Below are positions 5,408 through 54,891 of a DNA stretch of 64,000 bases, piece by piece. The stretch lies in NCBI GenBank assembly GCA_965231015.1, contig OZ246408.1, positions 83,755 to 147,754 of the forward strand. The letters run 5' to 3'. The position numbers and the translations under genes are program-made. The notes beneath the pieces were generated by a model. That model worked only from the letters and a program-made list of their open reading frames with translations, had not been told where the DNA came from and did no database searches. Origin of the DNA: an uncultured Gammaproteobacteria bacterium. Its GTDB lineage: Bacteria; Patescibacteriota; Patescibacteriia; UBA9934; CAZDDW01. Positions within the stretch are counted from its first letter, which is position 1. Every line of letters begins with the position of its first letter.

Positions 5408-5436
5408 TTGACTTTTTGGTCAAAATATGCTATAGT
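5408..5436 (+). promoter_or_regulatory. Promoter module TTGACT-17-TATAGT with the conserved spacer …GGTCAAAATATGC
   Basis: It is a consensus-like sigma70 promoter about 45 nt upstream of the 3D-domain gene and shares the recurrent spacer motif (see findings). Confidence 0.5.
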
Positions 5437-5479
5437 GCACCTCGTTCCGCAGTAAAGCGGAATTTTATTTTATCAATAT

Positions 5480-6037
5480 ATGCCTAAACGCAAGAAACAA
5501 CTTAAAAAGGTATCTAAGTGGAAGAAGTTCGCTAAATTTAGCAAGAAAAATGCTTTCAATTTGGCTCTAATCGGTTTTACTTCGCTTGGTTTAGCCTATT
5601 TTTCACTTCCAAATACCGCCAAGGCTTACTTTGGTGTTTCACCAGAGTTTGATAGCACCTGGGCTGAGGAAATGCGTCTTGAGTTTGAGGTGCTTGAAAA
5701 CCAGTCTAAATCTTACGGCGAGCTTCCGCTTGCCGGAGACGCCAAGCCGCGTTACGAGACCACTGTGCCAACCACTGCTTATACTTCAACCGTGTGGCAG
5801 TGTGATGACACCCCGTTTATTACAGCTTCGGGAACCCATGTTCGTCACGGTGTGGTAGCGGCTAACTTCCTACCGATTGGTACCAAGCTTAAGATTCCTG
5901 AGCTTTACGGTGATCAAGTCTTTATTGTAGAGGACCGAATGAATGCCCGCTATTACAAAAAGATGGACATTTGGATGGAGGACTATGACGAAGCTATCGC
6001 CTTTGGAGTACAAAACTTAACCATTCAGGTTTTCTAA
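5480..6037 (+). CDS. 3D-domain (MltA/YocH-like) cell-wall-binding protein with an N-terminal signal/TM
   Basis: The C-terminus (…TASGTHVRHGVVAAN…PIGTKLKIP…IVEDRMNARYYKKMDIWMEDYDEAIAFG) fits the 3D domain pattern. Confidence 0.6.
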   Translation: MPKRKKQLKKVSKWKKFAKFSKKNAFNLALIGFTSLGLAYFSLPNTAKAYFGVSPEFDSTWAEEMRLEFEVLENQSKSYGELPLAGDAKPRYETTVPTTAYTSTVWQCDDTPFITASGTHVRHGVVAANFLPIGTKLKIPELYGDQVFIVEDRMNARYYKKMDIWMEDYDEAIAFGVQNLTIQVF

Positions 6038-6153
6038 AGATTTGAATGATGTAAAAACGAAAAACTCGTCAGGTATGGCGGGTTTTTCTGTTCTGGTTGT
6101 GGCTTGATCGGATCTGATTTTTATGATAATGTCCCCTCACAAGAATTGTTTTT

Positions 6154-6228
6154 GGCTGCGTGGCGAAGTGGTAACGCAGGGGTCTGCAAAACCTCGATGC
6201 ATCGGTTCGAATCCGATCGCAGCCTCCA
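6154..6228 (+). tRNA. tRNA-Cys (GCA)
   Basis: A cloverleaf was folded by hand: acceptor GGCTGCG/CGCAGCC, anticodon loop CTGCAAA, T-arm ATCGGTTCGAATCCGAT, encoded CCA. Confidence 0.85.
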
Positions 6229-6378
6229 TCCTTCGCTTCATCATATTTTGTTGGTGAAGCGGAGGATGCCCCTCGAGGCTCCGGAGGAGCGAAGTGGGGG
6301 CTTTGATCAGAATAATGAAGCTACGGATGATAAACCAGCATGACAGGGCTGTTTTTTGTTGCTACAATATATAACAAT

Positions 6379-6948
6379 ATGGGAGGAACTAAGAAAAAGA
6401 TTATCGGCCCCGTAATTCGCATCCGCGAGATAGTTTTTGGTTTAGAGGACGGTCTGGTCTCCACGGTTGGAGCTGTGACCGGCATTGCTGCCGGAAGCGG
6501 TAGTACATATGTCGTAGTTTTATCAGGGTTGGTCTTAATTATAGTCGAGGCTCTCTCAATGGGAGCCGGGAGTTACTTGTCAGAGAAGAGTAATCGCGAG
6601 GCTATGTACGCGCGCTACGCGAATGATTCACACATGAAAAAGCATTTGCCGGAACTGTTTCCGGAAACTGACATTAAGGCAGGGTTTGTGATGTGGGCTT
6701 CGTACATGATTGGTGGAATTATTCCTTTGGCTCCATATTTCTTTTTTTCCATCAACAATTCTTATGCACCATCAATTATCGGAACCGCTTTTGCTCTATT
6801 TGGGGTTGGGGTTTGGAAGGCTCGGCACACCAAACGTGATTGGATTAAAAGTGCTCTTGAAATGGTAGTGGTATCGCTTGGGGCAGTAGTGCTGGGGTTT
6901 GTGATTGGGCGCTTGGTGTCAGGCTCTTTTGGAATAAACGTCTACTAA
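6379..6948 (+). CDS. VIT1/CCC1-family (DUF125) putative iron/manganese transporter
   Basis: …EIVFGLEDGLVSTVGAVTGIA… plus C-terminal TM helices are typical of the VIT family. The start was chosen at an internal ATG; the upstream ATG at 6340 is also possible. Confidence 0.65.
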   Translation: MGGTKKKIIGPVIRIREIVFGLEDGLVSTVGAVTGIAAGSGSTYVVVLSGLVLIIVEALSMGAGSYLSEKSNREAMYARYANDSHMKKHLPELFPETDIKAGFVMWASYMIGGIIPLAPYFFFSINNSYAPSIIGTAFALFGVGVWKARHTKRDWIKSALEMVVVSLGAVVLGFVIGRLVSGSFGINVY

Positions 6949-7004
6949 GTCAGTCCGGTTACAGCCTTGAAAAAGAGGCTGTTTTTTGTTAGGATCACTC
7001 TACT

Positions 7005-8201
7005 ATGAAACATGTTTATTTAGATCACGCCGCTACAACCCCGCTTGATCCACGGGTCAAAGAGGCAATGGAGCCGTACATGACGGACCGATTTGGTAAT
7101 CCGTCTAGTTTTCATACTCCGGGCAAACAGGCTAAAGATGACCTGGATGCGGCTCGGGAGCGTATTGCCCGCCAGCTTGGAGTGCGCACAGAAGAGATTA
7201 TTTTTACTTCCGGTGGAACCGAATCTGATAATTTGGCTCTGCTTGGGTTTGCTCGAAAGAATTCTGAACACGGGAAACATATTATTACAACCAAAATCGA
7301 GCATCATGCGGTTCTACACTCTGCCGAGCAGCTGGAGCGGGAAGGTTTTGAGGTGACGTATCTTGAAGTCGATAAGGATGGGCTCGTCAGTGTTGATCAG
7401 GTAATAAAAGCGATTCGTCTGGATACGATCCTCGTAAGCATAATGTACGCCAACAACGAGATTGGAACCGTGGAACCTATTTCAGAAATTGGAAATGCAA
7501 TTGAAAAATATCGGCGCGACAACAAAACCGAGTGGCCAGTTTTTCACACGGATGCCTGTCAGGCCGCGGGCGCACTCGAACTTAACGTTCCAAAACTGCA
7601 TGTCGACATGTTGACGTGCAACGGATCTAAAATTTATGGACCAAAAGGAATCGGGTTATTGTTTAAGAGACGCGAGCTCAAGCTCGAGCCACTTACGTTT
7701 GGTGGTGGACAAGAAATGGGTTTGCGGCCAGGCACCGAGAATGTGGCAGGAGTTATCGGATTAGCCGAAGCTCTCAAGATTGCGGAAGAGGAACGCAAGA
7801 AAGAGTCAGCTCGATTAATTGCCTTGCGAGAAAAATTGATCGCGGGAATTCGTGATAAGATTGAAGGAGTGCGTTTGAACGGTTCAGCAATAGACCGGCT
7901 CCCGAACAATGTAAATATATCGTTTAAAGATATCGAAGGCGAGGCCTTGCTTTTATACCTCGATGCCAAGGGAATATATTGTTCGACCGGGTCGGCGTGC
8001 ACCAGTGCATCGCTTGATCCGTCACACGTGATTATGGCCCTTGGTTTGCCGGCTGAGGTAGCACATTCGGCCATGCGGTTTAGTCTGGGACGGAAAACAA
8101 CTGAAGATGACATTGATTATTTGCTCTCTGAGTTGCCACCACTCGTTGAAAAGATTCGAAAGATTTCCGCCGTTAAGATCGATAAAAAATATTTTGAATA
8201 A
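7005..8201 (+). CDS. iscS: Cysteine desulfurase (NifS/IscS family, PLP-dependent)
   Basis: …LDHAATTP…, …SGGTESDN…, HTDACQAAG and SxHK-type motifs; 398 aa. Confidence 0.9.
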   Translation: MKHVYLDHAATTPLDPRVKEAMEPYMTDRFGNPSSFHTPGKQAKDDLDAARERIARQLGVRTEEIIFTSGGTESDNLALLGFARKNSEHGKHIITTKIEHHAVLHSAEQLEREGFEVTYLEVDKDGLVSVDQVIKAIRLDTILVSIMYANNEIGTVEPISEIGNAIEKYRRDNKTEWPVFHTDACQAAGALELNVPKLHVDMLTCNGSKIYGPKGIGLLFKRRELKLEPLTFGGGQEMGLRPGTENVAGVIGLAEALKIAEEERKKESARLIALREKLIAGIRDKIEGVRLNGSAIDRLPNNVNISFKDIEGEALLLYLDAKGIYCSTGSACTSASLDPSHVIMALGLPAEVAHSAMRFSLGRKTTEDDIDYLLSELPPLVEKIRKISAVKIDKKYFE

Positions 8202-8202
8202 T

Positions 8203-8613
8203 ATGGCTGACGTTCAGTCTCACGATGGAGAAGAAAATTGGTTCTATTCCGCAACCGTGCAGGACCACTTTTTCAATCCGCGGAATCTTGCGACCGAGGG
8301 TCCAACTGATTATGATGCCATGGGTGAGGTTGGTTCGCCGGCTTGTGGGGACAAGATGAAAGTATGGATAAAAGTTGATCCAAAAACGAACAAGATTACT
8401 GACTTTAAATGGCGAACTTTCGGGTGCGCTTCAGCTATTGCTTCGACTTCTGTGGCTTCAGAAATGATGATTGGAAAAACCCTTGAAGAGGCTCAAAAAA
8501 TCACTCCAAGGAAAATTGTGGAAGAGCTTGGCGGTTTGCCTCCGCGAAAGATCCATTGTTCGGTGTTAGCAGATCAAGCCCTTCGAGCCGCAATTAAAAA
8601 CTATCAAAAATAA
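8203..8613 (+). CDS. iscU: Fe-S cluster assembly scaffold (IscU/NifU N-terminal domain type)
   Basis: …GSPACGDKMKVWIKV…, …FGCASAIASTS…, and a C-terminal …IHCSVLADQAL…; the ATG is 2 nt after the iscS stop. Confidence 0.85.
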   Translation: MADVQSHDGEENWFYSATVQDHFFNPRNLATEGPTDYDAMGEVGSPACGDKMKVWIKVDPKTNKITDFKWRTFGCASAIASTSVASEMMIGKTLEEAQKITPRKIVEELGGLPPRKIHCSVLADQALRAAIKNYQK

Positions 8614-8622
8614 GCCTAAAAT

Positions 8623-8883
8623 ATGAAAATAACCATTAAAGTAGATCCAGACCTTTGTATTGGAGCCGCAGCCTGCGTGGCAGTTGCCCCGGATTTTTAT
8701 CGTCTTAACGAAGACAATAAAGCAGTTGTGCTCGACCATGGAAAAGATGGGAATGAATACGAACGCACTATTGAGATCGAAGATGGTGAGCTCGATAATA
8801 TTCTGTTAAGTGCGGAATCTTGTCCGACCCTAGCAGTGTATATTTTTGACGAAGCGGGCAAACAATTGTTTCCCAAAAATTAA
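8623..8883 (+). CDS. Small [4Fe-4S]/[3Fe-4S] ferredoxin
   Basis: CIGAAAC…SCP cysteine pattern, 86 aa, within the Fe-S operon. Confidence 0.7.
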   Translation: MKITIKVDPDLCIGAAACVAVAPDFYRLNEDNKAVVLDHGKDGNEYERTIEIEDGELDNILLSAESCPTLAVYIFDEAGKQLFPKN

Positions 8884-8886
8884 ACT

Positions 8887-10026
8887 ATGAAATATTTGAT
8901 TATCGGTGGTGGCGTCGCTGGAACAACTTGCGCTGAAGAATTGCGCAAGCAGGATGCCAAGGCCGAGATCACAATTGTCAGCGAAGAAAACCACCCACTT
9001 TATTCCCGGGTGCTGCTTCCTCATTACGCCATGGGTAAGGTGTCGCGTGAAAAGTGTTTTTTGAAATCTTTTGAGTGGTACAGAAAACAAAAAATTGAAC
9101 TCATTGAAGGACAACGGGCAGTAAAACTCGACACAGAAAATAAGTTTGTCGAATTAGACGATGCGCGTGAGCTGCCGTATGATAAACTCGTAATCGCTAT
9201 CGGAACTGAGCCACGTCTTGAAACCGGTGAGCCGCGTGGAGTGGGTTACTTTTGGACCATCGACGACACGGACCACTTAGTTAAGTTGCTCGGCGAACCA
9301 GGACACAAACATGCCGTGATTCATGGTGGTGGATTTATTGCGTGTGAATTTTTGAATCTGTTTGCGCATCACGAACTAGCAACCACAGTAGTGTTGCGCG
9401 GTGAACATTTTTGGAATCGGATTCTTGAACCAAAAGTGGCAGATTATTTTATGAATTACCTGAAGGAGCAAGGGGTTGAAATTGTAACTGGGGCAAAAGA
9501 GTTAGAGGTGATGGGCAAGGAGGAGGTCAAAGCTGTTAGAACAAATGGAATTGAGACCAAGTGTTCGGTACTCGGGGTTGCAATCGGAAACGAGATCGAT
9601 TTAACCTGGCTTAAGGAGACAGGGGTTGAGATTGGGGATGGGATTCAAACAAATGAGTATCTTGAAACTAAAGTTTCCAATGTTTATGCTATTGGTGACG
9701 TGGCCGAGAGTTATGACTCGGTGGTGGACAGACAGTATTTGGCCGGAAACTGGGGTCGAGCGTTGACAATGGGCCGCACTTTGGCAAAAACCATGACCGG
9801 TGAGCGGACCGAGTTTCAGCACGTGAGTTCTTACGCGATCAATGTTTTGGGATTAGATGTGACTTTTATTGGTGACACGGACAAGGATGCATCGGAGCGA
9901 GTCGAAATCGAGGAAAAAGAGCAGGGAATTGCCCAAAAACACTATCGGAATGGAATAATGGTTGGAGTAGCCATTTTTGGTAGGGGATTTGATCGAAATA
10001 AGCTTACCCAGGAAGTAGGCAATTAA
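8887..10026 (+). CDS. FAD/NAD(P)-dependent pyridine nucleotide-disulfide oxidoreductase (ferredoxin/rubredoxin reductase-like)
   Basis: N-terminal GGGVAG Rossmann motif and a second GGGFIACE dinucleotide motif; last gene of the Fe-S operon. Confidence 0.8.
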   Translation: MKYLIIGGGVAGTTCAEELRKQDAKAEITIVSEENHPLYSRVLLPHYAMGKVSREKCFLKSFEWYRKQKIELIEGQRAVKLDTENKFVELDDARELPYDKLVIAIGTEPRLETGEPRGVGYFWTIDDTDHLVKLLGEPGHKHAVIHGGGFIACEFLNLFAHHELATTVVLRGEHFWNRILEPKVADYFMNYLKEQGVEIVTGAKELEVMGKEEVKAVRTNGIETKCSVLGVAIGNEIDLTWLKETGVEIGDGIQTNEYLETKVSNVYAIGDVAESYDSVVDRQYLAGNWGRALTMGRTLAKTMTGERTEFQHVSSYAINVLGLDVTFIGDTDKDASERVEIEEKEQGIAQKHYRNGIMVGVAIFGRGFDRNKLTQEVGN

Positions 10027-10067
10027 TTGAAAATTAGCTAAAATAAGATAAAAAGTAGATTTTTGGT

Positions 10068-10105
10068 CCTTATTATTCCTACGTACGAATAATAAGGTCT
10101 TTTTC
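10068..10105 (+). terminator. Rho-independent terminator of the Fe-S operon (CCTTATTATT…AATAATAAGG stem plus T-run)
   Basis: A 10-bp perfect stem followed by TTTTT. Confidence 0.65.
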
Positions 10106-10119
10106 TTTGTGTCTAGACA

Positions 10120-10148
10120 TTGACAAAAAGCCTAAAATATGCTATATT
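10120..10148 (+). promoter_or_regulatory. Promoter copy 1 of the island: TTGACA-17(…GCCTAAAATATGC)-TATATT
   Basis: A consensus -35/-10 at 17-nt spacing. Positions 10120-10155 are nearly identical to 12750-12785. Confidence 0.6.
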
Positions 10149-10290
10149 TGTATGTTCTCCGTGTTAGGCTTTTGGTCGTATTTTAGAAAATGCCGAGCGG
10201 AGGAAAAGATTTCCTCGCTCTTTACAATAAGGCAAAACCACAAAAAAAAATGTGCGGCGGCAAAAGCCGATCGCACGGAGGGAAACAAAA

Positions 10291-12675
10291 ATGGCCAAGT
10301 CTGCTACCGCAACCACTTTGATAAGCTTAGTGGCGAACATCGCCAACTGGACGAACGACAACCTGGGCGGTCGTATCGCGCGACCGTTCATCGAGAAGGC
10401 CATCCACGCGCTGTCCGCGCAGGGGGCCAAGTTGTCGGCCTCGGCCGTCATCAAAGAGCTCGTGAAGCTCGGCTTCAACCCGGAAGCCGTGCAGGGCTCG
10501 GCGCTCTTCAAGTACGCCGCTCCCACCCTGCTGACCGCAGGTGCGGGCGCGCTGAACGTGAAGGTGCCGGAATCGGTCTTCGGCGGTGATATCCGCCAGG
10601 CCAAGGAGCTCGAGAGCTTCTTGAACAACGTGATCGATCGAGCCGGCGAGGGAGCCTCGTCCGGCATCACCACAAGTGGGGTCGATGATCAGACCATGCC
10701 CGGGGTCACTCCCGGAACCATGGTCTACGGCAAGGCTCACAACATGCCGGGCCTCGCCGGGTACCGGCACCTGGCCATTCAGGGTCAGGGGGACCAGGTC
10801 TCCACGGTTTGTTCGGCCGTGGATCGGTTCTACGAGAACAACGCCTTGCGCGAGCTCATCATGAAGATGGGACTCCGGCGCCTCGACCGTGACACGGACG
10901 TCACGGAGATCGAGCCCCACATGACCTACCACCTCCCCCAGGAGGTCGACCACCTCCCGGACTGCCCCCACTGCCTCGGGCGTCTGATGGGCCTCGAGAG
11001 CGATGAGCTCTCGGGTCCGGACAGTCTGGAGCAGCTGCTCGACACTGAGCAGAAGCGAAAGTGGGCGGCTCTCGTCCGCCATGTGGCAGCTCACGAGCAC
11101 CGCGTGGCTATGATGATCCTGAAGAAGGGTCGCGTTGCGATCCTGAAGCAGGAGGGTCTCGTGGACGTGCTCAAGCTCGCCCTCGATGACATCGAGATCG
11201 GACCGGAGACGTTCGAGAAGGACGCCAGGCGGAAGGTGTTGCCCCACGGCATCACCGGAGCCGAGCATGACCGGACGGGCAACCAGATCGCCCCGTCGGC
11301 TCAGGGCGTCGTGGACGTCTTGTACCTCATGGACGAGGTTCAGGTCGATGGCGTCACCGAGTGGCGTCAGCTGCTCGACGAGTCCGTGGACGGGAACTGG
11401 TGGCAGGCCAAGAAGCGTCAGGCCGCCAAGTTCGTGGCCAACAACGGCGCGTTCGGCGTGGCAGTCCTGGCCTTCCTCGGGGTGCTCATGGGCATCCTGG
11501 TCCTCGGACTGGAGCTCATGTTCCTCGGGGCGGCGGCTCTTGGCGAGACGCTCTACGTCATGAGCTGGATGGGTGGTCCGGACTGGATGTTCGGCAACCC
11601 GATCGTTCCGGGCATCTTGAGCCTGTTCCTGGTCGCGATCGGCGTGGCCATCATGGCCGCTCCGTTTCACCTCCTTGAAAAGATGGTCTTTGGCCTTAAG
11701 AGCCACTGGCCGAGCTTTGACGAGGCAGTGGAGCGACTACCGGCATGGTTGCACTGGCTAAAGAGCGAGCGCGCCGAGGCCGGCACCACGGTGTACCGTC
11801 GCTCCGGGGTGGTCAAGTCACTGGCGCTGACCGTGATCACGGCTCACTTACTGTACGCCGTGCCGGTGCTGATCATCAACCTCGAGGCGTTTTTTTTCTT
11901 CCCGAACGTGCTGGAGGCAACCGAAGTGGTCAGCCGACTGATCGCCTTCCTGTCGCTGGCTATGCTCGGCTTCTGGATGCTGTCCGCCACGCGCGGGTCG
12001 TACCAGGAGGACAAGAATCGCGAAGAGGTTCTGTTGAATCGCCGGGGCGCGAACCGGTTCGTGGCTTTCCTATCGGATTCCGCGTACTCTGCGGTGAGGA
12101 GCTTCAACTGGGGCAGCGCGTTCACCTACGTGCTGTCCATCTGCGTGATCCCGGTCGTTTGGGGGGTCACGAAGATGTCTGGCTGGGCGTCCCCGTCGGT
12201 CACCAACCCCTCGATCATCGCGGGAGCCAACACGGGCTTCTTCACGAAGCTCACCGGTGTGCCCGGAAGCGTGCACCTCGGGGTGTTCGTGGGCATCTTG
12301 TTGGTCGCACTGCTTATATTGGTGGTGGCCGTGAACGTGCGCAACCGCGCCGGCGAGGTGGTGCTCTGGTCCATGATGGGCCTGTGCATCTTTCTGCTCG
12401 TCGGATACTTCGGCATCGGTGTTCCTGGTTTGACCGTGGCCAAGCTCGCCACGGACGTCGGACACGGAGACGGCTTCTTCGAAGCCCCGACGTACGACGG
12501 GATGTATCCCGACAAGAAGGACGAGCGACGCGCCCGGCGCAGTGCTCCGGTCTCGGGATATACCACAACCCCGACGACCGCCAACCCCCCTGTGGTTTCT
12601 AACCCCCAGCCCGGTTCGGATCGATCCGACGAGATCAAGAAGGCTCGTCAGGAATTGGCCGAATATGGCTGGTAG
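10291..12675 (+). CDS. GC-rich island protein A: 794 aa, a ~400-aa soluble N-domain (contains DCPHC) fused to a ~8-10 TM membrane domain and a Pro/Thr-rich tail; function unknown
   Basis: A GGAGGG RBS lies 9 nt upstream of the ATG. There is strong GC3 bias in this frame only. Long antisense ORFs are GC artefacts. No recognisable family motif. Confidence 0.72.
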   Translation: MAKSATATTLISLVANIANWTNDNLGGRIARPFIEKAIHALSAQGAKLSASAVIKELVKLGFNPEAVQGSALFKYAAPTLLTAGAGALNVKVPESVFGGDIRQAKELESFLNNVIDRAGEGASSGITTSGVDDQTMPGVTPGTMVYGKAHNMPGLAGYRHLAIQGQGDQVSTVCSAVDRFYENNALRELIMKMGLRRLDRDTDVTEIEPHMTYHLPQEVDHLPDCPHCLGRLMGLESDELSGPDSLEQLLDTEQKRKWAALVRHVAAHEHRVAMMILKKGRVAILKQEGLVDVLKLALDDIEIGPETFEKDARRKVLPHGITGAEHDRTGNQIAPSAQGVVDVLYLMDEVQVDGVTEWRQLLDESVDGNWWQAKKRQAAKFVANNGAFGVAVLAFLGVLMGILVLGLELMFLGAAALGETLYVMSWMGGPDWMFGNPIVPGILSLFLVAIGVAIMAAPFHLLEKMVFGLKSHWPSFDEAVERLPAWLHWLKSERAEAGTTVYRRSGVVKSLALTVITAHLLYAVPVLIINLEAFFFFPNVLEATEVVSRLIAFLSLAMLGFWMLSATRGSYQEDKNREEVLLNRRGANRFVAFLSDSAYSAVRSFNWGSAFTYVLSICVIPVVWGVTKMSGWASPSVTNPSIIAGANTGFFTKLTGVPGSVHLGVFVGILLVALLILVVAVNVRNRAGEVVLWSMMGLCIFLLVGYFGIGVPGLTVAKLATDVGHGDGFFEAPTYDGMYPDKKDERRARRSAPVSGYTTTPTTANPPVVSNPQPGSDRSDEIKKARQELAEYGW

Positions 12676-12683
12676 GACTTCCT

Positions 12684-12733
12684 GGCCCGGTCGGGACGCG
12701 CAGTAAAATGCGTTGTCTCGGCCGGGTCTTTTC
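12684..12733 (+). terminator. Imperfect hairpin terminator after protein A (GGCCCGGTCGGGAC…GTCTCGGCCGGGTC plus TTTT)
   Basis: A stem with 2 mismatches followed by a T-run. Confidence 0.4.
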
Positions 12734-12749
12734 CGTTTATGCTTATATC

Positions 12750-12778
12750 TTGACAAAATTGCTAAAATATGCTATATT
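12750..12778 (+). promoter_or_regulatory. Promoter copy 2 of the island: TTGACA-17(…TGCTAAAATATGC)-TATATT
   Basis: A near-duplicate of 10120-10148. Confidence 0.6.
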
Positions 12779-12980
12779 TATATGTTCACAATTCATACTC
12801 GAGGGGAAGAGTAAGGCGCTGATTCTTTGTTTAACTGGGTTTTCCGGTTAAATATCCCCTCAAGAATTAGCGCTTTATTCGTCCCATTGAGGACACCAAC
12901 CAGAACCTTTCAATAATAGAACGACGACGGGGGAGGACCCCCAACAATAAAGGGGTTCCACCCCGAAAGGAGATACGGGT
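12779..12980 (+). promoter_or_regulatory. Roughly 200-nt structured 5' leader of the lipoprotein gene (several G/C hairpins; AGGAGA RBS at its end)
   Basis: Hairpins CTCGAGGGGA…TCCCCTCAAG, GGGGGAGGACCCCC and AAAGGGGTTCCACCCC are seen directly. Confidence 0.4.
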
Positions 12981-13751
12981 ATGAGGTACATCCTCATGAT
13001 GCTCGCAACCCTGACCCTGGTCGGCACCTCCGGGTGCAGCACCTACAACACGGCCACTCGCGGTGGCCAGTTCTTCGGCACCGGTGCGGTGGCCGTGCGC
13101 GGCATGGACGTCGCACAGGACATGTGCACCACCAAGGACGGCGAGAGATTGCCGTGCAACCTGTCGGCCGTGAGCACCCCGCACGGGGCCGTGGTCGGCG
13201 CGAGCAACGGCGCCTACTACGGCTACCCGTACAGCGCGGTGCCGTACGCGCCGGGCATGATGCTCGGCGGATCGACCGGCAACCCGCAGCTAGACTCGGT
13301 CAAGTTGTACCGCGCCACCCATCCGGGGGTGCCGTACAACCAGACCGCGGCAGACCTGTCCGCGGCCGGGACGTACCAGGCGGTGCGTCAGGGTCAGATG
13401 ACCCGGGCCGCGGTGGCCGGCAACACCGCCGCGATCTACGATGTCGCGGCCGACCAAGCCGCCACGGACGAGTCCGTGCGCGGCCTTGAGGCGAACCAGG
13501 CCGCCACTGCGGCCGAGGTTGAGGACGTGAATCTGCGTTTGCATCAGAACGCGCAGACGCAACAACGGATGGCCCAGGACATTGCCGGGGCCATCAAGGA
13601 GAACGAGGACCGAGCCAATGCGGCCGGTCAGGCGGCCAGCCTGGCTCTCGAGGTTCTCGACGAGGGTGGGTCGAATGGTTCGGCACTGACCGTGGATCAC
13701 CAGATCGAGATCGCGGTTCCGGCCGGGACTGCGGAGGAGGACGACCGATGA
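12981..13751 (+). CDS. GC-rich island protein B: lipoprotein (lipobox LVGTSGC) with an Ala/Gln-rich coiled-coil C-terminus
   Basis: Signal peptide plus lipobox, AGGAGA RBS, and GC3 bias in this frame. Confidence 0.68.
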   Translation: MRYILMMLATLTLVGTSGCSTYNTATRGGQFFGTGAVAVRGMDVAQDMCTTKDGERLPCNLSAVSTPHGAVVGASNGAYYGYPYSAVPYAPGMMLGGSTGNPQLDSVKLYRATHPGVPYNQTAADLSAAGTYQAVRQGQMTRAAVAGNTAAIYDVAADQAATDESVRGLEANQAATAAEVEDVNLRLHQNAQTQQRMAQDIAGAIKENEDRANAAGQAASLALEVLDEGGSNGSALTVDHQIEIAVPAGTAEEDDR

Positions 13752-14566
13752 AGAAGCTAAACCTGATCGCGGTGGCCTTCGTGGTCGCCACCTGCTGTGT
13801 GCTCCCGGCCTACGGGCAGGGAGGCAACCAGCCTTTCGTGATCTCGGAGTCCACCTGGCAGATGTGCCGGGAGGAGGGGATCACGGTGTACGAGGAGTGC
13901 GTGCTCGCCAAGGCTGCCGTGTCCTACACGGCGGTCAAGGGAGAGCGTGACGAGCTTCAAACCCAGAACGCGCACCTGCGCGGTCAGGTCGCGAATCTCG
14001 AGGACGAGAACGCGCACCTGCGCGGTCGCGTCATCTCGCTTGAAGACGCCCAGAGCAGGCTCGAGGCCAAGCTCGACGACCTGCTCGCCGCATCCGCGAC
14101 CGGACCAGCGCCGAGCCTGACCACTCCGGCCATGCCCGCCGCCGCACCAGTGGCCGACCCGCTTTCGGTCGCCTGGAGCAGCGAGCCGCGCAACCACGAG
14201 TTCGCGGCCCTCACCGGTTTGACCTGGGAGTCGTGCGAAGACATGGGTCTTTGCACGGCGTTCGTGAACCAGTCCGCCTACTCGATCACGATCGACGTGG
14301 GCGGGGTGCGTACGGTCATCGGCCGGTCGCACGGGGTCGCGAGCCTCACTCCGGCGCCAACCACTCATGGCGCCGAGACTCTGGTCGGACCGGGTCAGCG
14401 GGTGTACTTGTACGTCGGAGAATCGAGCTTCGACGCCACGTACACCGCGTACGTGCCGATCCGAGGTACGTTCGTGCCGAGCTTCACAAAGACGGTCACG
14501 AACGTGAAGACCAAGGGGGCCAATCCTTTCAAGGGGATTGGCCGAGGTGGCTGGAGCTCCCTCTAG
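13748..14566 (+). CDS. GC-rich island protein C: secreted protein with tandem leucine-zipper-like repeats (NAHLRGQVANLEDENAHLRGRVISLED) and a C-terminal globular domain
   Basis: The ATGA start/stop overlap with protein B implies translational coupling. A signal peptide is present. The repeat is visible at the DNA level (13963-14040). Confidence 0.68.
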   Translation: MKKLNLIAVAFVVATCCVLPAYGQGGNQPFVISESTWQMCREEGITVYEECVLAKAAVSYTAVKGERDELQTQNAHLRGQVANLEDENAHLRGRVISLEDAQSRLEAKLDDLLAASATGPAPSLTTPAMPAAAPVADPLSVAWSSEPRNHEFAALTGLTWESCEDMGLCTAFVNQSAYSITIDVGGVRTVIGRSHGVASLTPAPTTHGAETLVGPGQRVYLYVGESSFDATYTAYVPIRGTFVPSFTKTVTNVKTKGANPFKGIGRGGWSSL

Positions 14567-14634: not shown

Positions 14635-14644
14635 TAGAATTGTC

Positions 14645-22176: not shown

Positions 22177-22204
22177 AACTCTATTTCTGCAATCATGAAA
22201 TTTA

Positions 22205-23374: not shown

Positions 23375-23375
23375 A

Positions 23376-28428: not shown

Positions 28429-28457
28429 TTGACAATAAGGCCAAAATATGCTAAAAT
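28429..28457 (+). promoter_or_regulatory. Promoter module TTGACA-17(…GGCCAAAATATGC)-TAAAAT
   Basis: Same spacer motif as the other copies. It lies inside the annotated 5' end of the 28429 ORF, so the true CDS start is downstream. Confidence 0.5.
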
Positions 28458-43865: not shown

Positions 43866-43894
43866 TTGACAGGAAATACCCTATAAGCTAAAAT
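43866..43894 (+). promoter_or_regulatory. rRNA promoter P1 (TTGACA-17-TAAAAT)
   Basis: A perfect -35 with good -10 at 17-nt spacing, ~440 nt upstream of the 23S. Confidence 0.55.
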
Positions 43895-43981: not shown

Positions 43982-44010
43982 TTGACTTTTTGGCTAAAAT
44001 AAGGTATTAT
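43982..44010 (+). promoter_or_regulatory. rRNA promoter P2 (TTGACT-17(…GGCTAAAATAAGG)-TATTAT)
   Basis: A second tandem promoter that shares the conserved spacer motif. Confidence 0.5.
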
Positions 44011-44948
44011 TGCAGGGATGGAGAGATGTAAAAGGCTATGGAGACACAAAATATGACAAATTTAACCCAATTGCTTATAGACTAGGCGGTATCCTAAGAC
44101 CGTAAACATTATAATCGTTTACGCAGGATCGCTCACTAGGCGGTTTTTTGGTTGTAAAACAAAGCCTCTGCTCGAGTGCGAACTCGAACAGGGACCAGGA
44201 TCGCAACCGATCCCATGAACTTTCACAATTGAATTCCATAACAACAAACAATACGACAAACTTAAGATCTGATTGTTGGAGAATCGTTCAGCAATCGAAA
44301 CAGATTCATTAAGTGGTTGTAGAGCATCATAAGAGCATATGGTGGATGCCTCGACAGAAGACGCCGATGAAGGACGTAGCAGCCTGCGATAAGCCTCGGG
44401 AAGGTGGCAAGCAACCTTTGATCCGGGGATTTCCGAATGGGGAAACCTAGCATGGAGAATGCCATGTTGTCTTGCACTGAATATATAGGTGTAGGATGGG
44501 AACCTGGTGAAGTGAAACATCTCAGTAACCAGAGGAAAAGAGATCAAGACTTGCTAATGTAGTAATTGCATAATGCTTTATGCGATGGCTACATTCTGCA
44601 AGTTCATTCCCTTAGTAGCGGCGAGCGAAAGGGGATGAGCCCAAACCTTTAATGTGAAGTTTTATTGAACTATCTCTTCGGAGTTAGGGATTTATAACGA
44701 AAGCTATTAGGCGTTGCATTTAAGGGGTTGTAAGATAGTTGTGTTCTCTTGCTAATACAAGAGAGGTAAGGTCAAAAATTATGACTTCCCTAATAGAAGC
44801 CGTTGGAAAGCGGCACCAAAGAGGGTGATAGTCCTGTACATAAAAGGGGTTATATCCTTACGACAATTATTCTTGAGTACCACGAGACTCGTGAAATCTT
44901 GTGGGAACCTGCCGCGACTATGCGGTAAGGCTAAATACGTCTTCTGAT

Positions 44949-44985
<37 letters not shown>

Positions 44986-45552
44986 CACCCCGGGAGGGGA
45001 ATGAAATAGTATCTGAAACCGTATGCTTACAAGGAGTCGGAGTCCCGTCTAACGGGATGACGGCGTTCCTATTGAAGAATGAGCCAACGAGTGTGCTGTG
45101 CGTCGCTTGGTTAAGTCCTTTGGGACGAAGCCTCAGTGAAAGCGAGCGTTAACCCGCGAATTTTGTGGCGCGCACACGACCCGAAACCGAGCGACCTAAC
45201 CATGGGCAGGGTGAAGCGAATGTAACAATTCGTGGAGGCCCGAACCCACTGGCCGTGCAAAACCAGGGGATGACCTGTGGTTAGCGGAGAAATTCCAATC
45301 GAGCTCGGTAATAGCTGGTTCTCGCCGAGATAGCTTTAGGGCTAGCGTCAGTTAATAGCGTATTGGGGGTAGAGCACTGAATGGAGCTGGGGCCGCAAGG
45401 TACCCTCTCTAACCAAACTCCGAATACCAATACGTGTTCCTGGCAGTCAGACTATGGGGGCGAAGCTCCATTAGTCGAAAGGGGAACAGCCCAGATCTCA
45501 AACTAAGGTCCCTAAATCGTGATTAAGTGTGAAAGGTAGTGAAAAGGCAAAT

Positions 45553-45587
<35 letters not shown>

Positions 45588-45679
45588 TAAAGATAGCGTA
45601 ACAGCTCACTGGTCAAGCTTTTTTGCGCCGAAAATGTAACGGGGCTAAATCACGTACCGAAGTTGAGGGTGTTTGTGTC

Positions 45680-45833
45680 TCACTAGCGTTCGACATGAAA
45701 ATGATCAATTTACGAATGATCAATGATCAATGAATGTTCAATTTGAAAATTTACAAATTGTAACTTCAATGAAAATTGAAAACTAAAAATTGAAAATTCC
45801 TGTGGCGAGCGGTAGCGAGACACAGACGCGGTA
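45680..45833 (+). other. IVS-1 in the 23S helix-45 region: stem-flanked AT-rich ~100-nt core
   Basis: It replaces the helix-45 tip (the E. coli ~1170 region) and is flanked by GTGTCTCACTAGCG/CGCTACCGCTCGCCACAG-type complementarity. Confidence 0.7.
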
Positions 45834-46492
45834 GGCGAGCGTTCGCATTGCGTTGAAGCAGTATCGTAAGGTCCTGTGGAGCGATGTGAAGTGAGAATGT
45901 TGGCATGAGTAGCAAAAAGACGGGTGAGAACCCCGTCCACCGAAAACCCAAGGTTTCCTGGGCAACGTAAATCGTCCCAGGGTTAGTCGGGTCCTAAGGC
46001 GAGGCCGAAAGGCGTAGTCGATGGACAGCAGGTTAATATTCCTGCACCACGTATTGTGTCCGATGGAGGGACACTTGTTCGAGCTTCCCGCGTCCTATGG
46101 CTATGACGTTGGGCGCTTGGGGATGGATAGTAGGCAAATCCGCTATCCGTAAGTCTCTGAGTGAGCGCGATTCCACCGCAAGGTGGGAAAGGGGAAGGTA
46201 GAATGAGTCTAGAAAAGCTTCTAAGGATTCCACAATATGTGCCCGTACCGCAAACCAACACAGGTGGGTAGGTATAAGAGTACCAAGGTGTACGAGAGAA
46301 ACATTGTTTAGGAACTCGGCAAAACAGCGGCCGTAACTTCGGGATAAGGCCTGGTTTCCCTCGGGAGAGGGAGACCCGCAGCGAAAGATAGCGAGCGACT
46401 GTTTATCAAAAACACAGGTCCCTGCTAAACCGTAAGGTGATGTATAGGGGCTGATGCCTGGCCAGTGTCCGAACGTTAAGGGAGGGGGTTAG

Positions 46493-46644
46493 CCGTGCCA
46501 TGTGAGCACTTAGCACGGAATGATCAATTTATAAATGATCAATGATCAATGAATGTTCAATTTGAAAATTAACAAATTGGAAATTCAATGAAAATTGAAA
46601 ACTGAAAATTGAAAATTCCATGCCGAGGATTCACATGGCATGGT
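46493..46644 (+). other. IVS-2 in 23S domain IV (the hairpin equivalent to E. coli ~1860), with the same AT-rich core flanked by two hairpins
   Basis: It replaces a GCAAG-type tetraloop between …GGGGTTAGC and TGAAGCTC…. The core is ~92% identical to IVS-1. Confidence 0.7.
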
Positions 46645-46691
46645 GAAGCTCCTGACCGAAGCGCGGATGAACGCCGGCGATAACTATAATC

Positions 46692-46754
<63 letters not shown>

Positions 46755-47242
46755 GCTAACTGTCTCAACAATGTACTCGGCGAAATTGCGAGGAGAGTGA
46801 AGATGCTCTCTAACCGTGGCCGGACGAAAAGACCCCATGAAGCTTTACTACAGCTTGCTATTGGGTTTATGTTTCGCATGTTCAGTATAGGTGGGAGCCT
46901 TCGGGCGCCAGTGAGATACCACCCTTGCGTTGTGTAAATCCTAACTGGATACCGTGAAACCGGTATCTGGGACAGTAGCTGGTGGGTAGTTTACCTGGGG
47001 CGGGTGCCTCCCAAAAAGTAACGGAGGCGTTCACAAAGGTTGGCTTAGCGCGGATGGAAATCGCGCTGGACGTGCAAGCGCACAAGCCAGCTTTACTGCA
47101 AGGCCGACCAGCCGCGCAGTTGCGAAAGCAGGAGCTAGTGATCCGACCGTACGATATAGGACGGCGGAAGCTCATCGGATAAAAGCTACTCTGGGGATAA
47201 CAGGCTAGTCTCCCCCAAGCGTCCACAGCGACGGGGAGGTTC

Positions 47243-47273
<31 letters not shown>

Positions 47274-47287
47274 AGCTGGAGAAGGTT

Positions 47288-47361
<74 letters not shown>

Positions 47362-47708
47362 CTATCCGCCACGGTCGTAGAAAGTTGAGGGAACCCATTC
47401 CTAGTACGAGAGGACCGGAATGGACGAACCTCTGGTGTACCGGTTGTCCTGCCAAGGGCATCGCCGGGTAGCTACGTTCGGGTCGGATAAGCGCTGAAAG
47501 CATATAAGCGCGAAGTCGATCCCAAGATTAACTTTCATTATGAGACCCCTCGGAGATGACGAGGTTGATAGGCTCTAGGTGTAAGCGTGGTAACACGTTC
47601 AGCCGAGGAGTACTAATAGGTCCAGCTCTACAATCACTTAACGAGTTTATTTCAAAATCGCCAAAATTATTTTGACGATTTGAATTCGTTGTTTATAAAA
47701 CCTTCAAA

Positions 47709-48022: not shown

Positions 48023-48052
48023 TTGACAATTTAGCTAAATTATGGCCATAAT
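48023..48052 (+). promoter_or_regulatory. Promoter-like module TTGACA-18(…TTAGCTAAATTATGG)-CATAAT
   Basis: A variant of the recurrent module upstream of the 48106 gene. Confidence 0.35.
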
Positions 48053-48105: not shown

Positions 48106-49623
48106 ATGTACCGCTTTGGAGTGGTTCTTGGTTTCTGGTTGATTTTCGTGGCCGGCTGTAGCCCGAATGATGATGATTTCATTACGTCGAATCCAATCGA
48201 TGACAACGATGATGATGACGACGACGTGATCGACTACGGTGACGTTACCATCGAGCCGACCGGTCACCTGACCGCGTGGGTGCGCTGGGAAACGGATGTC
48301 CCGTCTGACTCGATCGTTGAGTTCGGCATCGGGGAGCTGGAGTATCGGCAGATCTATACTGAGCTCGTGACTGATCATGAGGTGTTGCTCGCCGGGACGA
48401 GGACCGACGAGACATACCAGATTCGGGTCACTAGCTCCACGACGGACGCTCTCGTTTTCGAGAACGCTGACATAGAGTTCACAAATGACCCGTTGCCTGA
48501 CTGGCTCCCGCTTGAAGCGGAGTTCAACTGGGACGTGTACGACGCAGAAGCGGTCGATCCTGGGTGGACGGTGATGAACATTGCCGTTCTTCAGGAGGAC
48601 GCCTCCATGGTTACCAGTCCGGTCACGGTGATCGTTCTCGATCACGAGGGACAGCCCATCTTCCACTATCGTCAGGAAGCAGAGATTCCGGCCACAGCCG
48701 ACATCGAAGCCACCTGGGACGAAGGTGAAATTCTGGTCGGTGGAGGACTGGCCGAGGGTAAGAGCCCATTCAAGTTGAATCTGGCCGGCCAAATCACCTG
48801 GGAAGACAGCTTTGTCCAACCGTTTCCAATGTCCGAGGAGTACATGCATCACGTGTACTACAAGGACGACTCCGGTAACCTTATTTCCATGCTTGTTTCA
48901 TATGCCGACGGCCTCTCTGATGAGATCGTGGCATATGATGCATCCATGGCCGAGGTGTGGAGTTGGAATTCGGTCAAGCTCAAAGAAGAAGGGTACTCGG
49001 AGTATCCAGACCTCTCGAACGTGGCGATCGTAGAGCCGGAGAACGGCGTGGCTTACTACGGGTTGCGCGACGACTCAATGCTCTATAAGATCGACATGGC
49101 CACCGGAGATGTGGTCTGGGAGTTCGGACAGAATCACTCAAGTGGTGATCTTGGTGACTTCGCCGGCGAATACGGACACCCTCGTGCCTGGCCGATGCTC
49201 CCGCACGGTATGGAACACGACGGTGACCGGTGGCTCTTCTATGACAACCGCTCGGATTTCACTGGCTCCCGTGTGGTCGAGTATGAGGTTGATGAGGCGA
49301 CCATGGAAGCGTCTATCGTCTGGGAGTATCCAGGCGAATACGCGGACGATCCCTGGTACGGCTATGTCTGGGGTGACGCCGATTGGCTTTTGAACAGCAA
49401 TGTTCTCGTGACCACCGGTCAGTCCTGGGCAGTGGATCCGTCCTCTACTCCGCATGAGCTCAACGATGCTTGGGCCGAGGCTGGTCACGCCCGTCTGTTC
49501 GAACTCGCTCCGGTCGGTGGCGAGTCGGACCAGATGCGGATCGTCTGGGAGGTCGCTCTCGAAGGAGATATCACGGGTAGCTACGCTGCCGACCGTTTCT
49601 CTGCGCTGGTCGAGTTCCTGTAA
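48106..49623 (+). CDS. Secreted lipoprotein (lipobox FVAGCS) with poly-Asp linker and beta-propeller-like body; function unknown (possibly arylsulfotransferase-like)
   Basis: GGAGGAGAG RBS, signal plus lipobox, 505 aa. The gene is moderately GC-rich. Confidence 0.55.
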   Translation: MYRFGVVLGFWLIFVAGCSPNDDDFITSNPIDDNDDDDDDVIDYGDVTIEPTGHLTAWVRWETDVPSDSIVEFGIGELEYRQIYTELVTDHEVLLAGTRTDETYQIRVTSSTTDALVFENADIEFTNDPLPDWLPLEAEFNWDVYDAEAVDPGWTVMNIAVLQEDASMVTSPVTVIVLDHEGQPIFHYRQEAEIPATADIEATWDEGEILVGGGLAEGKSPFKLNLAGQITWEDSFVQPFPMSEEYMHHVYYKDDSGNLISMLVSYADGLSDEIVAYDASMAEVWSWNSVKLKEEGYSEYPDLSNVAIVEPENGVAYYGLRDDSMLYKIDMATGDVVWEFGQNHSSGDLGDFAGEYGHPRAWPMLPHGMEHDGDRWLFYDNRSDFTGSRVVEYEVDEATMEASIVWEYPGEYADDPWYGYVWGDADWLLNSNVLVTTGQSWAVDPSSTPHELNDAWAEAGHARLFELAPVGGESDQMRIVWEVALEGDITGSYAADRFSALVEFL

Positions 49624-50433: not shown

Positions 50434-50451
50434 AGAGTGTTTGAAATATTT

Positions 50452-52816: not shown

Positions 52817-52875
52817 ATCAAAAATCCCCCACGAATTCGTCTGGGGAACCCAGGCACGCTAGGGGATTTTTGTAA

Positions 52876-53253
52876 CTATTTGCGCTTCTTAGTAGTCTTA
52901 CGACGCTTAGGAGCGGCTTTTCGTTTCTTTGGAGCTGCTTTACGCTTAGCAGGCTTACGAGTGACTTTGCGCTTTGTAGTCTTTCGTTTAGCAGGCTTGC
53001 GCTTAGCAACCTTGCGCTTCTTAGCTACTTTTTTCTTAGCAACTTTTCGCTTCGCTGGCTTGCGCTTAGCAGGTTTCTTCTTAGAGACTTTCTTTCGCTT
53101 AGGAGCAGCTTTGCGTTTTGCAGGCTTTCGCTTTGCAACCTTACGCTTCGCTGGCTTCTTAGTTACCTTCTTGCGTTTTGGTGCAGCCTTCTTAGCAGGC
53201 TTTCGCTTTTTAGCGACCTTACGCTTAGCAGGTTTCTTTTTCTTTGCTGGCAT
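52876..53253 (-). CDS. Histone H1-like, Lys/Ala/Pro-rich (KPAKRK-repeat) DNA-binding protein
   Basis: 125 aa made almost entirely of PAKRK/VAKKRK repeats; the DNA is a degenerate 15-18 nt tandem repeat. Confidence 0.65.
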   Translation of the reverse strand: MPAKKKKPAKRKVAKKRKPAKKAAPKRKKVTKKPAKRKVAKRKPAKRKAAPKRKKVSKKKPAKRKPAKRKVAKKKVAKKRKVAKRKPAKRKTTKRKVTRKPAKRKAAPKKRKAAPKRRKTTKKRK

Positions 53254-53448
53254 GTTATTTCACCCCCCTTCTTTTTTAAGATAAATATTTTTTAAAAATC
53301 CTCCAATAGCTTTGTGAATTTTTAAATTCGACCGTATAGTAATTATAAAACTTTTTTTGTTTTGCAACAATACAAAATAGTAAAAAGTCAAAAGTAAAAA
53401 GTAGAAAGATTTTAGATTCTTTCTACTTTCTAGATTCAACTTTCTATT

Positions 53449-54816
53449 TTAGTCCACGACGTCAACCGGAATACCTACTTCAGCCCAGTGAAAAATCCAT
53501 TCTGCGTTTTCTGTTGAGGCATTTACGCAGCCATGACTCATGCGGTTGCCAAAGTTGTTGTGCCAAGGGGCAGAGTGAATATAAAAGTGTGGCTGGAACA
53601 TTAAATTCCACGGCGTTAGACCCAAGCTGTAATTGTTAGGATTGCCTTCCCCATAACTCCAGGTGTAATCGACCCACTCTTTTTTGGCTAAAACATCGAA
53701 ATTTCCTTGAGGTGATGGAGAAGAATAAAGCCCTGAAGAGATGTAGAACGAGTTATCTAAGATGCCATTCTTATAGGCAAATAATCGTTGTTCAGAGACG
53801 TCAATAATGATGTGTCGTTCACTTGATGGTCCAGCCAGAGCCCCGTTAGGAACCATGACTATTTCATCTTCACCGTCTTGGTCTAAATCGATTAGTTCAA
53901 CATCTTGCACCCAGTCTCTTTTTATCTCAATAACTTCGCCATTATTTTTTTCAATTCGAACGTTGTTATTGTTATAACTGGTTGGTGCAACAACTAAATT
54001 GTTATCCACAGTTTGTGAAAAATTAATTCCACTTTGTATATTTTTTTGTACGGAAGAAATAAAAATTGGTGCACTGTGAACAGAATAAGATATTATTTCA
54101 GAATTATTTCCGGTCATGTGTGAAACTAAAAGTTGTTTGTCACCGTTTGCAGTCTTAACGATTTCAATATTTGTTCCGTCACTGTCTGCAGCATCGAACG
54201 CAAAAAATTCTTCTTCAATCTGCCAATCTTTTCCATTCCATTCCCACATGCGTACGTGTGGTCCTCCGGTTGGCCCAGGCGCGGTCACAATCTCGACTTC
54301 ACCGTCTCCATCTAGATCATCACAGGCTACGTTGACTCCACCGCGGAAGTCTTCCGCGTAGGCAAAGAATCCGTTACTAAATTTTACATTTCCATTGGTA
54401 TCAAAAACCCGCACTTGGGGACCGCCACCGTATTGAGTTCCAGTTACAATCTCGGCTGGACCATCACCATCAAGGTCACAAACTGCCACGTTAATTCCGC
54501 GACCAAAGTTGGCAGCGTAGGCTAAGAAACTGGTGATCTCTGATCCGTCCTGGCGAAAAATTCGTACTCGTGGATCATTGCCAAAACCTTGACCGAGAAT
54601 GATTTCTGGCACTCCATCGATCCCAAGATCAGCTACAGCCAAGCTGGCTCCACCGGAGTTGTTATGAATCGAAATCTCAAAGCTTGATTCTAGCTCACCG
54701 TTTAGATTATAAATTTCAACCGGTAGGGTTCGATACACTGCCGCATTAGCGTTTAAGGCAAATACAAAACTCGCTATAAAAAGCGAAGTAATTGAAAGTG
54801 GGGCTAATTTTTTCAT
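53449..54816 (-). CDS. FG-GAP/VCBS-repeat protein fused to a C-terminal L,D-transpeptidase (YkuD) domain
   Basis: Repeated …DLDGDG..EIV.G… motifs and a C-terminal …SHGCVNAS… catalytic motif. Confidence 0.72.
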   Translation of the reverse strand: MKKLAPLSITSLFIASFVFALNANAAVYRTLPVEIYNLNGELESSFEISIHNNSGGASLAVADLGIDGVPEIILGQGFGNDPRVRIFRQDGSEITSFLAYAANFGRGINVAVCDLDGDGPAEIVTGTQYGGGPQVRVFDTNGNVKFSNGFFAYAEDFRGGVNVACDDLDGDGEVEIVTAPGPTGGPHVRMWEWNGKDWQIEEEFFAFDAADSDGTNIEIVKTANGDKQLLVSHMTGNNSEIISYSVHSAPIFISSVQKNIQSGINFSQTVDNNLVVAPTSYNNNNVRIEKNNGEVIEIKRDWVQDVELIDLDQDGEDEIVMVPNGALAGPSSERHIIIDVSEQRLFAYKNGILDNSFYISSGLYSSPSPQGNFDVLAKKEWVDYTWSYGEGNPNNYSLGLTPWNLMFQPHFYIHSAPWHNNFGNRMSHGCVNASTENAEWIFHWAEVGIPVDVVD

Positions 54817-54862
54817 ATCAATCCAAGATTACCAAAAATAGGCCTTTACGTCCATGAAACTG

Positions 54863-54891
54863 TTGACAAAAATAGCCAAGCATAGTACTAT
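54863..54891 (+). promoter_or_regulatory. Promoter TTGACA-17(…AATAGCCAAGCATAG)-TACTAT upstream of tRNA-Ala
   Basis: Consensus-like elements related to the recurrent module. Confidence 0.4.

Follow-up and report, generated by a model that had tools for sequence, protein, structure and literature searches.

A promoter module with a near-invariant spacer in a Patescibacteria contig, read as known housekeeping promoter architecture

A 64-kb stretch of DNA from an uncultured bacterium (contig OZ246408.1 of assembly GCA_965231015.1), called the window throughout, carries five copies of a promoter module in which not only the -35 and -10 hexamers but also the spacer between them is shared. The window is part of a genome of about 1.0 Mb, and the promoter sites described here were read from its sequence. 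The five sites are, very probably, housekeeping σA/σ70 promoters of maximal strength that combine every known positive promoter element. Our verdict is that the module is a known promoter architecture; we do not take it for a peculiarity of the lineage, for a regulator site or for a mobile cassette. The genes that it would drive are the 23S-5S rRNA unit, two cell-wall remodelling operons and a cassette of membrane and lipoprotein genes, all of which are probably among the most highly expressed of the cell.

The proposed elements follow one another in a fixed order. A -35 hexamer TTGACA/T would be followed by a spacer of the optimal 17 bp. In this, an A or T run (-30 to -26) and a short block of G/C (-25..-22) would come before a tract of A in the Z-element zone of the β' zipper (-21..-18) and TATG at -17..-14, the latter for reading by σ region 3.0; a TAnnnT -10 hexamer would complete the series. 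Transcription start sites (TSS), promoter strength and the part of RNA polymerase (RNAP) that reads each block are predictions made from these letters. Genes of this kind would need high expression, and selection would therefore hold each contributing position at its optimum, so that the promoters come to resemble copies of one another.

Sites and architecture of the module

In the window, five + strand sites (5408, 10120, 12750, 28429 and 43982) match TTGACW-N8-AAAATAWGS-TAWWNT exactly (W is A or T; S, G or C; Y, C or T; R, A or G; N or n, any base). These sites and three other promoter-like sites are the following.

5408..5436, + strand: module promoter 1, TTGACT-TTTTGGTCAAAATATGC-TATAGT
10120..10148, + strand: module promoter 2, TTGACA-AAAAGCCTAAAATATGC-TATATT
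12750..12778, + strand: module promoter 3, TTGACA-AAATTGCTAAAATATGC-TATATT
28429..28457, + strand: module promoter 4, TTGACA-ATAAGGCCAAAATATGC-TAAAAT
43982..44010, + strand: module promoter 5 (rRNA P2), TTGACT-TTTTGGCTAAAATAAGG-TATTAT
43866..43894, + strand: rRNA P1, TTGACA-GGAAATACCCTATAAGC-TAAAAT, near-consensus and without the shared spacer stretch
48023..48052, + strand: promoter-like site, TTGACA...CATAAT with an 18-nt spacer, 53 nt 5' of the gene 48106-49623
54863..54891, + strand: promoter-like site, TTGACA-N17-TACTAT, 95 nt 5' of tRNA-Ala, without the shared stretch

The recurrence is far above chance. The pattern TTGACWNNNNNNNNAAAATAWGSTAWWNT has exact matches at the 5 sites against 0.00 expected (100 dinucleotide-preserving shuffles), and the 13-mer AAAATATGCTATA occurs 4 times with at most one mismatch against 0.05 expected. 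The 9-mer AAAATATGC has only 4 copies in the window, every one of them in promoter register. An independent repeat search of the window recovers the module as families D5 and D6. The spacer is 17 nt long at 5/5 sites, the -35 hexamer matches TTGACA at 5/6 or 6/6 positions at all five, and the -10 hexamers of sites 1 to 5 (TATAGT, TATATT, TATATT, TAAAAT and TATTAT) all read TAnnnT. With 10-11 of 12 hexamer matches, and with TG before the -10 hexamer in four of them, the sites rank among the best -35/-10 pairs of the window, which holds only 13 pairs with at least 10/12 matches. TRTG-n-TAnnnT is also found 5' of tRNA-Cys, tRNA-Gly, the pilin operon and several other window genes that have no good -35.

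The first-pass annotation of this DNA had counted at least six sites. All seven coordinates that it gave carry the sequences quoted for them on direct check, and the recurrent module is real at five; the sites at 48023 and 54863 do not carry the stretch. The former reads GCTAAATTATGG and is only loosely like the module, and the latter reads GCCAAGCATAG. On a position weight matrix (PWM) derived from the five, these score 37-41, as against 16 for the site at 48023 and less than 12 for the one at 54863. The stretch GSYMAAAATAWGS, which had been called invariant, is exact at two sites, has one mismatch at two and two mismatches at one. It was also dropped as a descriptor of the module: at two mismatches it has 55 matches in the window against 39 expected, barely over chance. 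The gene of site 1 had been named a 3D-domain gene, and Pfam gives no confirmation of that domain in its 185-aa protein.

Each module site is co-oriented with a gene or rRNA that begins 25-307 nt downstream, and at sites 1-4 the footprint starts at -35 in orthologues. Promoter 1 lies 43 nt 5' of the ATG of the gene for the 185-aa protein, which is membrane-anchored (5480-6037), and is divergent from a gene for a class A penicillin-binding protein (PBP). Promoter 2 is preceded directly by a terminator-like hairpin (10068-10097) and lies 142 nt 5' of the gene for a 794-aa GC-rich membrane protein (10291-12675). Promoter 3 lies 202 nt 5' of the lipoprotein gene 12981-13751, the first of a unit of two lipoprotein-like genes. 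Promoter 4 is found about 25 nt 5' of the likely GTG start (28483) of a SpoIID/LytB-like gene; a gene for a D-Ala-D-Ala carboxypeptidase comes next. Promoter 5 lies 307 nt 5' of the 5' end of the 23S rRNA (44318) in the 23S-5S unit. The upstream sides of sites 3 and 5 have in common a T-rich stretch that looks, by eye, like a terminator tail. The window is located directly to the right of dnaA and dnaN and holds T4SS-pilin (PF18895) genes; the five module sites all lie on the leading strand, pointing away from the origin. The closest named relatives of the SpoIID/LytB-like protein belong to Candidatus Uhrbacteria and to the "Patescibacteria group", from which we infer that the host is an Uhrbacteria-like bacterium of the candidate phyla radiation (CPR).

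The spacer is built of blocks. Positions -29..-26 are W4 (AAAA or TTTT) in all five spacers and extend the last base of the -35 hexamer. Positions -25..-22 are G/C-rich (GGTC, GCCT, TGCT, GGCC and GGCT), and -21..-18 are AAAA at every site. TATG occupies -17..-14 in four sites, in agreement with the TRTG of the -16 region, and rRNA P2 has TAAG there, which keeps only the G at -14. Position -13 is C, or G in rRNA P2. The part common to all five is Y-AAAATA-W-G-S. For comparison, 115 near-consensus promoters were collected from 884 kb of unrelated genomes, using the loci of the pattern scan described below with the selected sites excluded. In that set A is the most frequent base at -21..-18 (44-49%, with W at about 80%), T is found in 73% at -17, R in 73% at -16, T in 66% at -15 and G in 59% at -14, and -25..-22 and -13 are flat. 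Every letter of AAAATATG is the top base at its position from -21 to -14 in these generic promoters, and AAAATATG is therefore the generic extended-promoter consensus at every position.

This architecture has precedents. A 2025 survey of 49 species, combined with sort-seq, describes the spacer as an AT tract, a GC-enriched region, a second AT tract and a G-rich Ex, an arrangement that is broadly conserved and positively selected, and strong sort-seq variants are enriched for it (PMC12641261). The premise of the first-pass annotation that σ70 spacers are normally not conserved was too strong. With the RNAP of Thermus aquaticus, Escherichia coli and Bacillus subtilis, the Z-element (-22..-18) contributes to open-complex formation by way of the β' zipper (PMC3173786). 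The role of the Gram-positive -16 region, or extended -10, has been summarised (PMC12641261, PMC6570832), and TRTG stabilises the open complex according to the passage of PMC6570832 that cites Voskuil and Chambliss.

Conservation in relatives and occurrence in other genomes

A syntenic sister species (loci L202 and L206), whose proteins are 81-89% identical to those of the window, retains sites 1-4. The orthologous promoters found, by locus, are the following.

Site 1: L202, L146, L157, L123, L129 and L126
Site 2: L202, identical in the sister species
Site 3: L202 and L205
Site 4: L206, L208, L209 and L210

Alignments with the sister are diverged or unalignable 5' of the -35 hexamer and near-identical from -35 on. 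Only 5 substitutions are found in 116 module positions, and all of them fall at -25..-22 or at -13: site 1 changes from GGTC to GCCG, and site 3 changes from T to C within -25..-22 and from C to G at -13. The exact 9-mer AAAATATGC is unchanged at all four sites. In relatives whose proteins are 48-65% identical, sites 1 and 4 still have promoters at orthologous positions, with different letters. What these distant orthologues retain is a framework, with TTGACA and TAnnnT at its ends and, between them, two W tracts separated by an S block and then TnTG. The distant versions of site 1 read TTGACA-AAAATGGTAAAATATGG-TATATT, TTGACA-AAATGGTCAAAAAGTGC-TATAGT and TTGACC-AAAAGGCTAAAGTGTGC-TATACT, and in two further versions TTTTT replaces AAAA. 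At site 4 the distant spacers end in ...AATTTTTGC, ...AATTTGTGC and ...AAATTTTGC; the first two of these are examples of what replaces AAAATATGC.

A table of 17 distinct promoters of the clade, in which the site-1 orthologues were picked by PWM similarity, gives W in 76-100% at -29..-26, S in 76-94% at -25..-23 and W in 94-100% at -21..-18. It has T at -17 in 16/17 promoters, R at -16 in 13/17, T at -15 in 15/17, G at -14 in 16/17 and S at -13 in 16/17. What is conserved thus appears to be a pattern of composition and contacts held in a fixed -35/-10 register, as would be expected of recognition by RNAP and not of a sequence-specific operator. The rRNA promoter yielded no orthologue: in the single fetched locus with a 23S gene the pattern site faces away from it, and the protein adjoining the rRNA operon of the window is an orphan with no homologues.

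The pattern TTGACW-N8-AAAATATGCTAWA was then scanned against one genome per species and matched at least 120 loci, nearly each from a different genome and all in the same register. The matches listed are mostly from Clostridia (Ruminococcus, Oscillospiraceae and Eubacteriales) and Patescibacteria; others are from Elusimicrobia, Anaerolineae, Ignavibacteria, Omnitrophica and one cyanobacterium. The last base of the -10 hexamer (-7), which the pattern leaves unconstrained, is T in 114/120 listed matches, and the base preceding it is A in 74/120. The T at -7 indicates that the listed matches are real promoters and not chance occurrences. Because they are spread across phyla, the most conserved part of the module is no peculiarity of this lineage. 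A G/C-Y-Y triplet at -24..-22 is found in 10 of the 35 CPR-like matches and in 4 of the 85 other listed matches, where chance would give, by our own estimate, about 11%; this excess is a modest lineage flavour.

Some further observations come from the same scan. Among the listed matches (L002-L121), the AT tract tends to be a T run after TTGACT (16/27 start with TT) and an A run after TTGACA (37/93 start with AA), and thus the promoter-proximal AT tract extends the last base of the -35 hexamer. Several metagenome-assembled genomes labelled 'uncultured Gammaproteobacteria' (L006, L023, L030, L052 and L099) carry CPR-type genes. These include a PBP 48% identical to that of the window and T4SS pilins, together with the CPR-flavoured variant of the promoter, and one of the genomes is a single contig of 1.34 Mb. 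They are probably mislabelled Patescibacteria.

Alternative explanations and neighbouring features

The uniformity of the sites within this genome exceeds what a general consensus predicts, and this is the one feature that the housekeeping-promoter explanation does not fully cover. Generic frequencies predict that fewer than 1% of near-consensus promoters read AAAATATG(C), and 4 of 13 do so here; in 1 Mb from relatives, none of the 47 near-consensus promoters carries the exact 9-mer; and the table of 17 clade promoters is somewhat biased by the PWM picking of site-1 orthologues. All of this weighs against the explanation that we favour. The excess could come from strong selection on a few top promoters, from a somewhat stricter polymerase, or from both. 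An RNAP of this lineage with an unusually strict spacer preference, seated in σA region 3.0 or the β' zipper, would make YAAAATATGC a true lineage-specific element. It would account for an exact 9-mer that occurs four times and stays intact in the sister, and for the G/C preference of the clade table at -25..-23 (76-94%) and -13 (94%), where the generic set is flat. Yet relatives with 60-65% protein identity have W-tract variants at the orthologous promoters, the rRNA P1 and tRNA promoters of the window use quite different spacers, and the bias of the clade table touches this reading as well. We regard a strict polymerase as unlikely, while granting it some weight. The first-pass annotation had offered an extended promoter consensus peculiar to the lineage, and it was right about the kind of element and wrong about its being peculiar, since the pattern is found at 120 or more loci across phyla. 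In a bolder version, a near-invariant 29-bp promoter with the spacer W4-GGCY-AAAATATGC would mark the most highly expressed genes of this Uhrbacteria-like lineage as a small regulon. Its spacer would be recognised with unusually high specificity, either by a lineage-specific RNAP feature (σ region 3.0 or β' zipper) or by a small factor that binds it. We give this version a small chance; if it were true, genome-reduced CPR bacteria would have a growth-rate control based on one promoter class.

Another possibility is that the shared stretch is an operator, bound by a global regulator or a nucleoid protein through which rRNA, envelope and cassette genes would be regulated together. In its favour, AAAATATGC is far more uniform in the strongest promoters of the window than generic statistics predict, and the genes served form a coherent high-demand set of rRNA and cell wall. 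We consider an operator highly improbable. Neither dyad nor direct-repeat symmetry is present in the stretch, every copy of the motif in the window is in promoter register, and the G/C block (GSYY) is the very part that differs between sister species. Distant orthologues swap the A tract for T or W tracts and yet keep the promoter. The same letters in the same register turn up in Clostridia, Elusimicrobia and other phyla, which would not be expected to share a factor of this kind, and each conserved block falls on a known contact zone of RNAP. A separate operator candidate, the palindrome AATAT-GCT-ATATT around the -10 hexamer, was rejected on inspection, being present in sites 2 and 3 and not in sites 1, 4 and 5. 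The remaining proposal was a portable promoter cassette of about 30-50 bp that is copied within the genome, so that the sites resemble each other by common descent. This is true at most of the two cassette promoters: promoters 2 and 3 share 52 nt at 81% identity from -49 to +9 (repeat family D8), and their genes have a foreign-looking codon usage, with a GC content at third codon positions (GC3) of 0.84-0.86 against about 0.45 in the neighbours. The +1..+10 sequence of the block considered here is TATATGTTC. Elsewhere the similarity stops at the borders of the -35 and -10 hexamers, giving a module of 26-29 nt. Sites 1 and 4 are old and resident, with positional orthologues in relatives at 48-65% protein identity, and the GC-rich cassette with both of its promoters is at the same place in the sister, and a relative has the cassette as well, at 58% identity. 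Neither inverted repeats nor target duplications were seen. As a general explanation, copying is very unlikely, and promoters 2 and 3 are probably old local paralogues.

Nor do the sites look like a mobile or repeated element of the miniature inverted-repeat transposable element or repetitive extragenic palindrome type, since the similarity covers only 26-29 nt except in the 52-nt pair and sites 1-4 are at orthologous positions. A search of phage and plasmid collections with 44 nt of site 2 returned only non-significant partial matches (E of about 1-10), mostly intergenic and from Firmicute phages. A known phage or plasmid promoter or cassette was accordingly set aside as a candidate, as the 44-mer of site 2 had no significant match.

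Housekeeping promoters of maximal strength are thus the reading that we retain for the five sites. The architecture, the position and orientation of the sites, their pattern of conservation and their occurrence across phyla are direct observations. The case serves mainly for calibration, since conservation of the spacer between -35 and -10 alone indicates neither a regulator nor a mobile cassette. It also supplies a consensus for a strong promoter that is ready for use in Uhrbacteria-like CPR bacteria, TTGACA-AAAA-GGCY-AAAA-TATGC-TATAAT. Our search of the literature turned up no study of promoters or TSS in Patescibacteria, so these sequences have a modest value as the first consensus strong promoter of the group. 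Genetic tools for Patescibacteria are only starting to emerge.

The GC-rich cassette driven by promoters 2 and 3 (10291-14566) contains three genes, which encode the 794-aa protein, a polytopic membrane protein, and lipoprotein-like proteins of 256 and 272 aa. None of the three has a Pfam family, and only 3 homologues were found among 5.8 billion proteins. The cassette of the sister (81% identity) has the same GC content, and the GC-richness is therefore stable and not decaying. Both cassette promoters are followed by long 5' leaders.

10149..10290, + strand: 5' leader of promoter 2, conserved in L202 and L205
12779..12980, + strand: structured 5' leader of promoter 3, conserved in relatives, with a hairpin of about 40 bp

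The leader of promoter 2 has CTCCGTG near its 5' end, which is complementary to CACGGAG at the Shine-Dalgarno region. The hairpin in the leader of promoter 3 has 5 compensatory pairs among 3 sequences. An Rfam scan of 5300-13100 with E up to 1 gave nothing except tRNA-Cys. The leaders 10149-10290 and 12779-12980 may be unannotated cis-regulatory RNAs. A terminator-like hairpin also lies between promoter 1 and its start codon (5444-5463, GTTCCGC-AGTAAA-GCGGAAT with a T run after it). The sister species has it with 100% conservation, and its role could be that of an attenuator or of a 5' stabiliser.

The rRNA operon behind promoter 5 consists of 23S and 5S only, with no 16S gene upstream in the window. 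Its 23S rRNA (44318-47634) measures 3317 nt, where the model has 2925 nt, and holds two 101-nt copies of one sequence (45700-45800 and 46519-46619) at 94% identity, 819 nt apart, which suggests that it carries insertions (introns or intervening sequences). Two tRNA genes have behind them much the same sequence of about 65 nt, CCATCCTTCGCT...TTGGTGAAGCGGAGGATGCCC (repeats D9 and D19). It is found at 6205-6271, 3' of tRNA-Cys, and at 55039-55107, 3' of tRNA-Ala, and may be a shared downstream element, a small RNA or a terminator. A low-GC block (19758-24566; 0.29-0.39 against about 0.46 elsewhere) contains four genes that adjoin a region of Wzx/Wzy-type polysaccharide synthesis, and it is probably an exchanged surface-glycan cluster. 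An open reading frame on the - strand (52876-53253) is made of imperfect tandem repeats of about 21-30 nt, GCTTAGCAGGCTT... (repeats D1, D3 and D4), and its product would be a repetitive basic protein rich in Lys, Ala and Arg.

Comparison with known promoter elements

Promoters of the MerR type and those with repressor operators resemble the module in having a conserved sequence between -35 and -10. MerR-type promoters have spacers of 19-20 bp, and the spacer operators of MerR proteins and repressors have dyad symmetry. The module differs from both in its 17-bp spacer and in the lack of a dyad, and it does not qualify as an operator of either sort.

The YAAAA of the module stands at exactly the -22..-18 of the Z-element and is kept in relatives as a W tract; the described examples AACCT, AACAT and AATGT also begin with AA (PMC3173786). 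Here it is a candidate Z-element, and the likeness of its letters to the described examples is only loose. The Z-element consensus is itself loose, with modest effects that are seen mainly in promoters without a -35 (Yuzenkova et al., 2011; PMC3173786). The four-region spacer is matched in the order and approximate positions of its blocks, the module having W at both -29..-26 and -21..-18, S at -25..-23 and TRTG at -17..-14 (PMC12641261). The published signal is weak and statistical, and its GC region is termed 'low-signal' (PMC12641261, Nucleic Acids Research 2025), whereas the blocks of the present module are nearly invariant in a handful of promoters. Patescibacteria are absent from the 49 species of that survey, where a search for the word gave 0 occurrences (PMC12641261).

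A further counterpart is the -16 region TRTGn of Gram-positive σA promoters, described in B. subtilis by Voskuil and Chambliss. The module shares with it TATG at -17..-14 before an n-TATAAT-like hexamer, together with TTGACA and a 17-bp spacer. The differences are that the host is a Patescibacterium and not a Firmicute, that rRNA P2 has TAAG, and that C or G is preferred at -13, unlike in the classical motif. The five promoters extend the Firmicute-type TRTG extended -10, together with the four-block spacer, into the Patescibacteria.

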